From Squalus acanthias (lineage: Eukaryota), in the NCBI GenBank assembly GCA_030390025.1, contig CM059436.1, positions 39,370,001 through 39,434,000 of the forward strand: a DNA stretch of 64,000 nt, read 5' to 3'. Made by a program: the position numbers and the translations under genes. Below, one piece after another: positions 40,626 through 41,040 of this stretch (position 1 is its first letter; every line of letters begins with the position of its first letter). The notes under the pieces were generated by a model. The model was not told the DNA's origin. It did no database searches and saw nothing but the letters and a program-made list of their open reading frames with translations.

Positions 40626-41040
40626 TTCAACAATTTCAGATCATAACATATATATATATTTTTTATCCACACTTTTGTTCTGTTCTTCTCTCCCACAGGG
40701 CAACTGTTTTCCATTCTGCCAGCGCAATTTACACTTCATCTAGAGCCATCCTTTGTTTCTTAACCTCTCCCATTACCATCCCCTTTTGCCTTGAATATCT
40801 CTTTAATGTCTCTCAATGTCTCTTAATGTCTCCTGCCTTCCAGCCTATCACAGGCCTTCCCTTTTGTTCTTTCATCCCCTCCCCATTTCCCAGCCACTAC
40901 ACTTGCTTAAAAATCTGTTACATTTCCTGCTTTTTTCCAGTTCTGACGAAAGGTCATCGACCTGAAACGTTAACTCTGTTTCTCTCTTCACAGATGCTGC
41001 CTGACCTGCTGAGTATTTCCAGCATTTTCTGTTTTTATTT
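40626..41040. repeat. Right arm of the ~415-bp inverted repeat (inverted pseudo-LTR at the element's 5' end)
   Basis: Reverse complement of 38548-38962 with few substitutions or indels; joins the truncated RT abruptly at 40625. Confidence 0.95.
40939..40975 (+). ncRNA. Minimal type I hammerhead ribozyme motif (PLE-associated)
   Basis: AGTT-CTGACGA-A-AGGTC-ATC-GACCT-GAAA-CG-TT-AACT: core CUGANGA and GAAA, stem II AGGTC/GACCT, stem I AGTT/AACT, and palindromic ACGT in place of stem III. Confidence 0.65.

Follow-up and report, generated by a model that had tools for sequence, protein, structure and literature searches.

Penelope-like elements (PLEs) of the EN+ group are typically laid out with inverted pseudo-LTRs (pLTRs), a one-sided tail and a target-site duplication (TSD) (PMC8557442; PMC3846280). 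Tails of 30-40 bp have been described for PLE insertions, and a CX2-5CxxC linker has been tied to the Neptune and Nematis clades (PMC8557442). The minimal hammerheads of PLEs, as set out by Cervera and De la Pena (2014; PMC4209133), are type I motifs located in the pLTR that have an intact core, a 4-bp helix I, a palindromic 15.2-16.2 without loop 3 and an unpaired base between positions 9 and 10.1, and that occur in thousands of mostly solo copies, some of them as pairs on opposite strands. In the same account metazoan minimal hammerheads are inactive as monomers and of low activity as dimers and trimers (PMC4209133). The hammerhead of PAc, the Anolis Poseidon element, immediately precedes the tail within the pLTR and is reported to cut only with protein, the main template being unprocessed RNA; the PAc ORF begins in stem II (PMC11167929). 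The role of PLE hammerheads has been described as unclear (PMC8557442). A further group, found on the sense strand of amniote introns and exemplified by RECK, is described as conserved across species (PMC6155905).

The locus considered here lies in a window of 64,000 nucleotides, the whole stretch of DNA that was analysed, and comprises a broken PLE inserted in an intron of the nuclear receptor gene ESRRG:

38493-38506, plus strand: left copy of the TSD, 14 bp, perfect; organisms B and C have this sequence a single time at the empty site
38507-41039, element sense on the minus strand: Penelope-like insertion, putatively Neptune-type, 5'-truncated and broken, with a 14-bp target duplication
38507-38547, minus strand: one-sided 41-nt 'tail' past the sense pLTR; the inverted arm has none
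38548-38962, minus strand: end of the element-sense ORF and pLTR arm
38613-38649, minus strand: the other hammerhead copy, within the element-sense pLTR; its stem II has a single mismatch (38627)
38942-40625, minus strand: RT and GIY-YIG ORF, 5'-truncated, with in-frame stops and a frame change
39191-39235, minus strand: GIY-YIG-like motif
39323-39349, minus strand: CX4CxxC linker
39992-40003, minus strand: YIDD of RT
40626 to about 41040, plus strand: inverted, tail-less pLTR arm, beginning within the last ORF codons
40939-40975, plus strand (ESRRG sense): minimal type I hammerhead motif inside the inverted pLTR, with a predicted cut after 40971
41040-41053, plus strand: right copy of the TSD, 14 bp, perfect

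The anatomy of the insertion is that of an EN+ PLE. RT is followed by a C-terminal GIY-YIG with a CX2-5CxxC linker, as in elements with a Neptune/Nematis-type linker (PMC8557442; PMC3846280), the Pfam matches on the ORF at 38942-40625 (RVT_1, E=5e-5; GIY-YIG, E=2.7e-4) both falling below curated cut-offs; linker and domain order together suggest a putative assignment to the Neptune clade. The two pLTR arms are about 97% identical (11 differences in 416 columns) and, with the one-sided tail and the TSD, reproduce the EN+ layout; 5' truncation, an inverted 5' arm, a one-sided tail and target duplication are all described for such elements, from which this insertion differs in its TSD of 14 bp, against 8-10 bp in the rotifer cases, and in an inversion junction that has no palindrome (PMC8557442; PMC3846280).

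The hammerhead motif on the plus strand reads AGUU-CUGACGA-A-AGGUC-AUC-GACCU-GAAA-CGU-U-AACU and is made up as follows:

40939-42/40972-75, plus strand: stem I (AGUU/AACU), 4 Watson-Crick pairs
40943-49, plus strand: core CUGACGA
40950, plus strand: extra A, unpaired, between 9 and 10.1
40951-55/40959-63, plus strand: stem II (AGGUC/GACCU), 5 Watson-Crick pairs with a 3-nt loop
40964-67, plus strand: GAAA core
40967-40970, plus strand: palindrome ACGU, a loop-less stem III

The set C3 U4 G5 A6 N7 G8 A9 ... G12 A13 A14 A15.1 with U16.1-H17 is complete at 40939-40975, the triplet being GUU. A preliminary description, made from the letters of the window, had reported this motif with its CUGACGA/GAAA core, 5-bp stem II, 4-bp stem I, GUU triplet and palindromic ACGU as a minimal type I hammerhead of a PLE pseudo-LTR, and that observation is confirmed in every part, including the position within the pLTR and the stem II mismatch of the element-sense copy (base 38627). 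The two copies, 38613-38649 on the minus strand and 40939-40975 on the plus strand, differ at a single base of stem II, on the 3' side of that stem (38627 against 40961). A spaced core pattern matched twice in the window, at precisely these two arm copies, and none of 100 shuffled sequences reached two matches (mean 0.00).

The motif shares with the published PLE hammerheads every trait of layout and distribution listed at the outset and departs from them in three respects: the closing pair 10.1-11.1 is A-U at 40939-40975, and A-U or G-U in the family, where theirs is the usual G10.1-C11.1; helix II has 5 bp, against 7-8 in Schistosoma; and the family has at least 48,000 copies here, against 4,000 in coelacanth and 9,000 in Xenopus (PMC4209133). 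The G10.1-C11.1 pair is called highly conserved in that account yet stands outside its descriptor. The extra A had been thought to make activity doubtful. As a disabling lesion it is ruled out, the same base being present in 65 of 68 sampled copies that span the motif and listed in PMC4209133 as a conserved trait, and for a viroid hammerhead with the same extra base only a moderate decrease in rate is on record (review PMC3376415). The proposed check by hammerhead models went the other way, as Rfam returned no hammerhead model at E<=10 for either 8 kb or 141 bp around the motif. Membership among the PLE minimal hammerheads rests on anatomy and location.

We consider it about 85% probable that 40939-40975 is a standard minimal hammerhead of a very abundant PLE, carried as a passenger into an ESRRG intron by a lineage-specific inverted-end insertion and likely inactive in the pre-mRNA. 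The element's anatomy, its 14-bp target duplication, the copy number and the empty site in three relatives are direct observations. The copy itself is an ordinary one, since inverted pLTRs, minimal hammerheads and the extra A are all published PLE features. We found no publication on this family or on the 5'-end pile-up considered below, although supplements (e.g., the larger alignments of PMC4209133) may include such motifs.

A genome-wide count (3.71 Gb) gives 48,088 exact cores with this spacing, against none for the reversed control; forms one base shorter add 2,664 matches and forms one base longer 340, by somewhat different patterns. Variation was followed with the help of a 25-nt anchor that lies downstream of the motif and has 34,905 matches; the sample consists of the first 100 of these, all on one contig (C1) and chosen without selection on the hammerhead. 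An opposite-strand pLTR motif lay within 700 bp in 32 of these 100 copies, a count in which both arms of one insertion can figure. The claim that the inversion places the hammerhead on the ESRRG sense strand stands, whereas the flip itself is routine, inverted pLTRs being published as well as frequent in the sample. It was likewise correct that the better-paired copy lies on the ESRRG strand, where, however, it merely has the commonest family sequence (33 of 141 motif hits among the fetched loci, a set biased by how the loci were picked), the other copy carrying a private mutation. Among the 68 motif-spanning copies the full core is kept in 44 and the full core with all stems in just 25, as it is at 40939-40975.

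It is unlikely, though worth weighing, that throughout the family the motif has lost catalysis and is retained for another purpose, as a signal for a promoter, for splicing or for protein binding; the hammerhead appearance would then be inherited and no copy would cut. Two-sided changes were seen at none of nine pairs, and pairing was no better than in shuffles, among 49 distinct 37-nt variants (mean identity 94%) that form rather too young a set, selected on the core and without the variants of other lengths. The minor-allele share in the core (0.049) is close to that of the downstream flank (0.055), and in the sampled copies the core is steadier than the upstream flank (0.133) and no steadier than the downstream one; the 10.1-11.1 pair is A-U in 28 of the 49 variants, G-U in 18 and something else in three, not the G-C of published motifs; and to this may be added the lack of an Rfam match and the few copies that start at the cut site. 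Against such a relic, variants that occur often are mainly at positions where change is tolerated (N7, 10.1 A/G against U, loop II), with a minor-allele share of 0.174, and the one-base-shorter variants, in the first 100 of 2,664 matches, keep the extra A and shorten stem II or loop II. Related PLE motifs, moreover, are reported to cut in vitro (PMC11167929; PMC4209133). That selection has acted on the fold is thus weakly supported in so young a family, and the relic reading is in any case compatible with the passenger reading of the 40939-40975 copy.

Several further observations concern the family at large. The palindrome keeps its majority bases in most sampled copies (C in 83 of 95, G in 81 of 95), and CpG-type decay affects G8 in 10 of 82. 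Six loci with one-base-shorter variants (L215-L220) retain the extra A and have a stem II of 4 bp that is capped by a UUCG or CUCG loop. Two loci on contig C1 (L211 and L212, at about 6.99 and 7.05 Mb) are tandem arrays that repeat about every 1.68 kb, with a hammerhead core in every unit alongside a piece of the element that has diverged (77%); these could be retrozyme-like or segmental repeats and a possible source of cis dimers. Longer copies with inverted pLTRs and long open frames (L213:5048-8077 and L214:4102-7867) should be useful for defining the 5' end of the element. Family 3' ends form two groups, one ending about 21-30 nt past the anchor and tail-less, the other about 52-64 nt past it and tailed; they correspond to 41034-41043 of the window and to the tail end near 38507-38517, and in the tailed group 18 of the 100 copies end at one position, in agreement with the one-sided PLE tail.

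The 5' junctions of the sampled copies cluster at the equivalent of 40932-40944, where 30 of the 80 copies at risk end; the background rate would give 4.7 (the binomial P, about 7e-17, is overstated in that some copies are paralogues or paired arms). By contrast with this cluster, 5' ends fall at 40967-40975 in only three of 96 copies, one of them exactly at the cut site. Genome-wide, the 10 upstream nucleotides are kept by 20,904 of 53,429 cores (39%) and the 10 downstream nucleotides by 34,067 of 53,429 (64%), despite a CpG within the downstream stretch. As 5' ends are rarely at the cut site and downstream flanks are kept more often than upstream ones, most copies appear to derive from uncut RNA, a feature shared with PAc insertions (PMC11167929), and it is probable that the template RNAs were not cut and had their start in the opening bases of helix I. 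Among the 30 pile-up copies, eight have a flank match of 9-16 nt close to the junction, as a TSD would give, and 10 adjoin an inverted arm. An origin of the pile-up from spliced copies with one common upstream exon was looked for and not seen, the upstream letters varying between copies. One candidate signal overlaps the site:

40903-40943, plus strand: inferred promoter- or splice-like signal, with TTAAAA about 30 nt upstream and CCAGTTC across the first stem I base

We take these words to be a TATA-like TTAAAA and an Inr-like CCAGTTC, which could equally be read as a pyrimidine tract with the AG of a splice acceptor. A transcription start at helix I is tentatively favoured over a splice acceptor. 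It is possible, if doubtful, that element RNA is started at helix I by a pLTR promoter, that about a third of copies are read-outs of uncut RNA reaching this 5' end, and that the ribozyme acts as a late 5'-end switch removing a capped leader of 32-33 nt.

A promoter in the right arm might also fire outwards from about 40939, giving a short RNA with the hammerhead at its very start and without the left arm, able to fold and to cut with help from protein or from a trans partner, independently of ESRRG transcription. Such a transcript, begun inside the right arm, would escape the hairpin described below, and the pile-up, the unequal retention of flanks and the Inr-like and TATA-like words at fitting spacing all speak for it. 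Most copies of such element families are usually silenced, however, and the same bases can be read as a splice acceptor. The published promoters point both ways, in that the Penelope promoter sits in the pLTR (PMC2377424; PMC3846280) but that of Drosophila is reported as TATA-less (PMC2377424), and there is a D. virilis intron whose end falls at helix I (PMC4209133). On balance we judge outward transcription of this copy to be distinctly improbable.

The host gene is laid out around the site as follows:

about 6.7-7.1, 9.6-9.75, 33.7-33.85 and 36.4-36.53 kb, plus strand: ESRRG DNA-binding and hinge exons, the nuclear receptor exons flanking the site
36535-64000 and about 0.9 kb further past the window end, plus strand: ESRRG intron holding the insertion, about 28.4 kb

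The next two ESRRG coding exons lie about 0.9 and 3.9 kb beyond the window end, and for the first of them the best match is ERR-gamma, at 162.6 bits, ERR-beta reaching 133. With plus-strand exons on both sides of the insertion, the motif is on the sense strand of the 28.4-kb intron, as are the amniote examples. Density alone predicts 0.18 sense-strand cores in an intron of this length. From the window start to the ESRRG stop codon near 68 kb there is no other plus-strand core, the next lying at about 96.4 kb, which leaves, in this part of the gene, no same-strand partner for the gating by dimerisation that had been suggested. In all three other related organisms compared (B, C and D, from two studies, with flanks differing by about 2-6%) the site is empty, contigs passing from the left flank directly into the right, and the insertion is therefore lineage-specific. 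A second sample of the host species spans the right junction by 22 letters, too few to count. The conservation at the orthologous site expected of a domesticated intronic hammerhead is thus absent in B, C and D, and the 40939-40975 copy bears no sign of selection. It differs from the amniote intronic hammerheads in being lineage-specific where they are conserved across species, minimal, without an Rfam match and, by prediction, locked in a duplex (PMC6155905).

The same intron holds an older inverted repeat pair (48500-48853 and 49537-49906, 75% identical over 374 columns). Elsewhere in the window are three fragments of another RT-bearing repeat (4450-5120, 25739-26525 and 58174-59166; 75-89% alike), with an RVT_1 match at 58174-58785, which we assume to be CR1/LINE-like. 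A GC-rich block at about 57300-62100, with a Myb/SANT-like ORF (61542-61907, minus strand, PF13873) and other ORF pieces, is presumably the remnant of a PIF/Harbinger-type DNA transposon. ARAGORN found no tRNA gene in the window.

Nearest-neighbour folding, whose energies omit hammerhead tertiary structure, proteins and unwinding by ADAR or helicases, gives the isolated motif a hammerhead shape of -5.9 kcal/mol with a probability of 0.002. In four local contexts stem II forms with a pair probability of 0.87-0.99 and stem I with at most 0.04, and one modelled double hammerhead reaches -9.7 kcal/mol, against -22.9 for the best co-fold. The duplex of the motif region with the left arm is put at -59.7 kcal/mol, and that of the whole 416-bp arm at -754.9; in the MFE fold of 38540-41060, the left arm takes up 36 of the 37 motif bases, and a partial arm duplex of -128.8 is possible already before the motif is transcribed. 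The arm duplex is thus predicted to swamp the hammerhead fold in ESRRG pre-mRNA. On transcription of ESRRG, the antisense left arm would be made about 2 kb ahead of the motif, the 313 nt of right arm preceding the motif could begin pairing with it, and the motif would be zipped into the 416-bp duplex on emerging; its loop-less stem III would in any case require a second same-sense copy. These models suggest that the 40939-40975 motif probably does not cleave ESRRG RNA, and the full intactness of the copy speaks on the other side. The 416-bp hairpin of 38548-41040 in the pre-mRNA would be a likely substrate for A-to-I editing, and if the insertion affects ESRRG at all, editing of the hairpin would be the likelier route.

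The regulatory reading built on the preliminary description, that of a sense-strand intronic ribozyme gated by trans-dimerisation with PLE RNAs and by the long hairpin, which cuts the pre-mRNA and tunes ESRRG, is highly improbable: the motif is intact and correctly oriented, PLE RNA is plentiful in contigs of four presumed RNA runs (which give neither ends nor strand), making trans partners possible, and conserved intronic hammerheads are known in amniotes (PMC6155905), but the insertion is missing in B, C and D, the copy shows no selection and no conservation across species of the amniote kind, the motif duplex is about 10 times more stable than the hammerhead fold, so that the hairpin is predicted to win outright and not to gate, and published dimers of minimal hammerheads are poorly active (PMC4209133).

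On the passenger reading, the job of the motif, if any, would belong to the element's own life cycle and would probably be late or protein-assisted, because most inserted copies derive from uncut RNA. For ESRRG there is probably no consequence, since the copy is recent, likely silent and just one of tens of thousands. If element RNA does start at helix I, inverted arms like this one would be outward-facing promoter-ribozyme cassettes beyond the reach of the hairpin, and the genome would hold tens of thousands of these. The sharp pile-up of 5' ends at helix I, with hardly any at the cut site, offers a way to test where transcription of PLEs begins, and whether cleavage precedes or follows retrotransposition.
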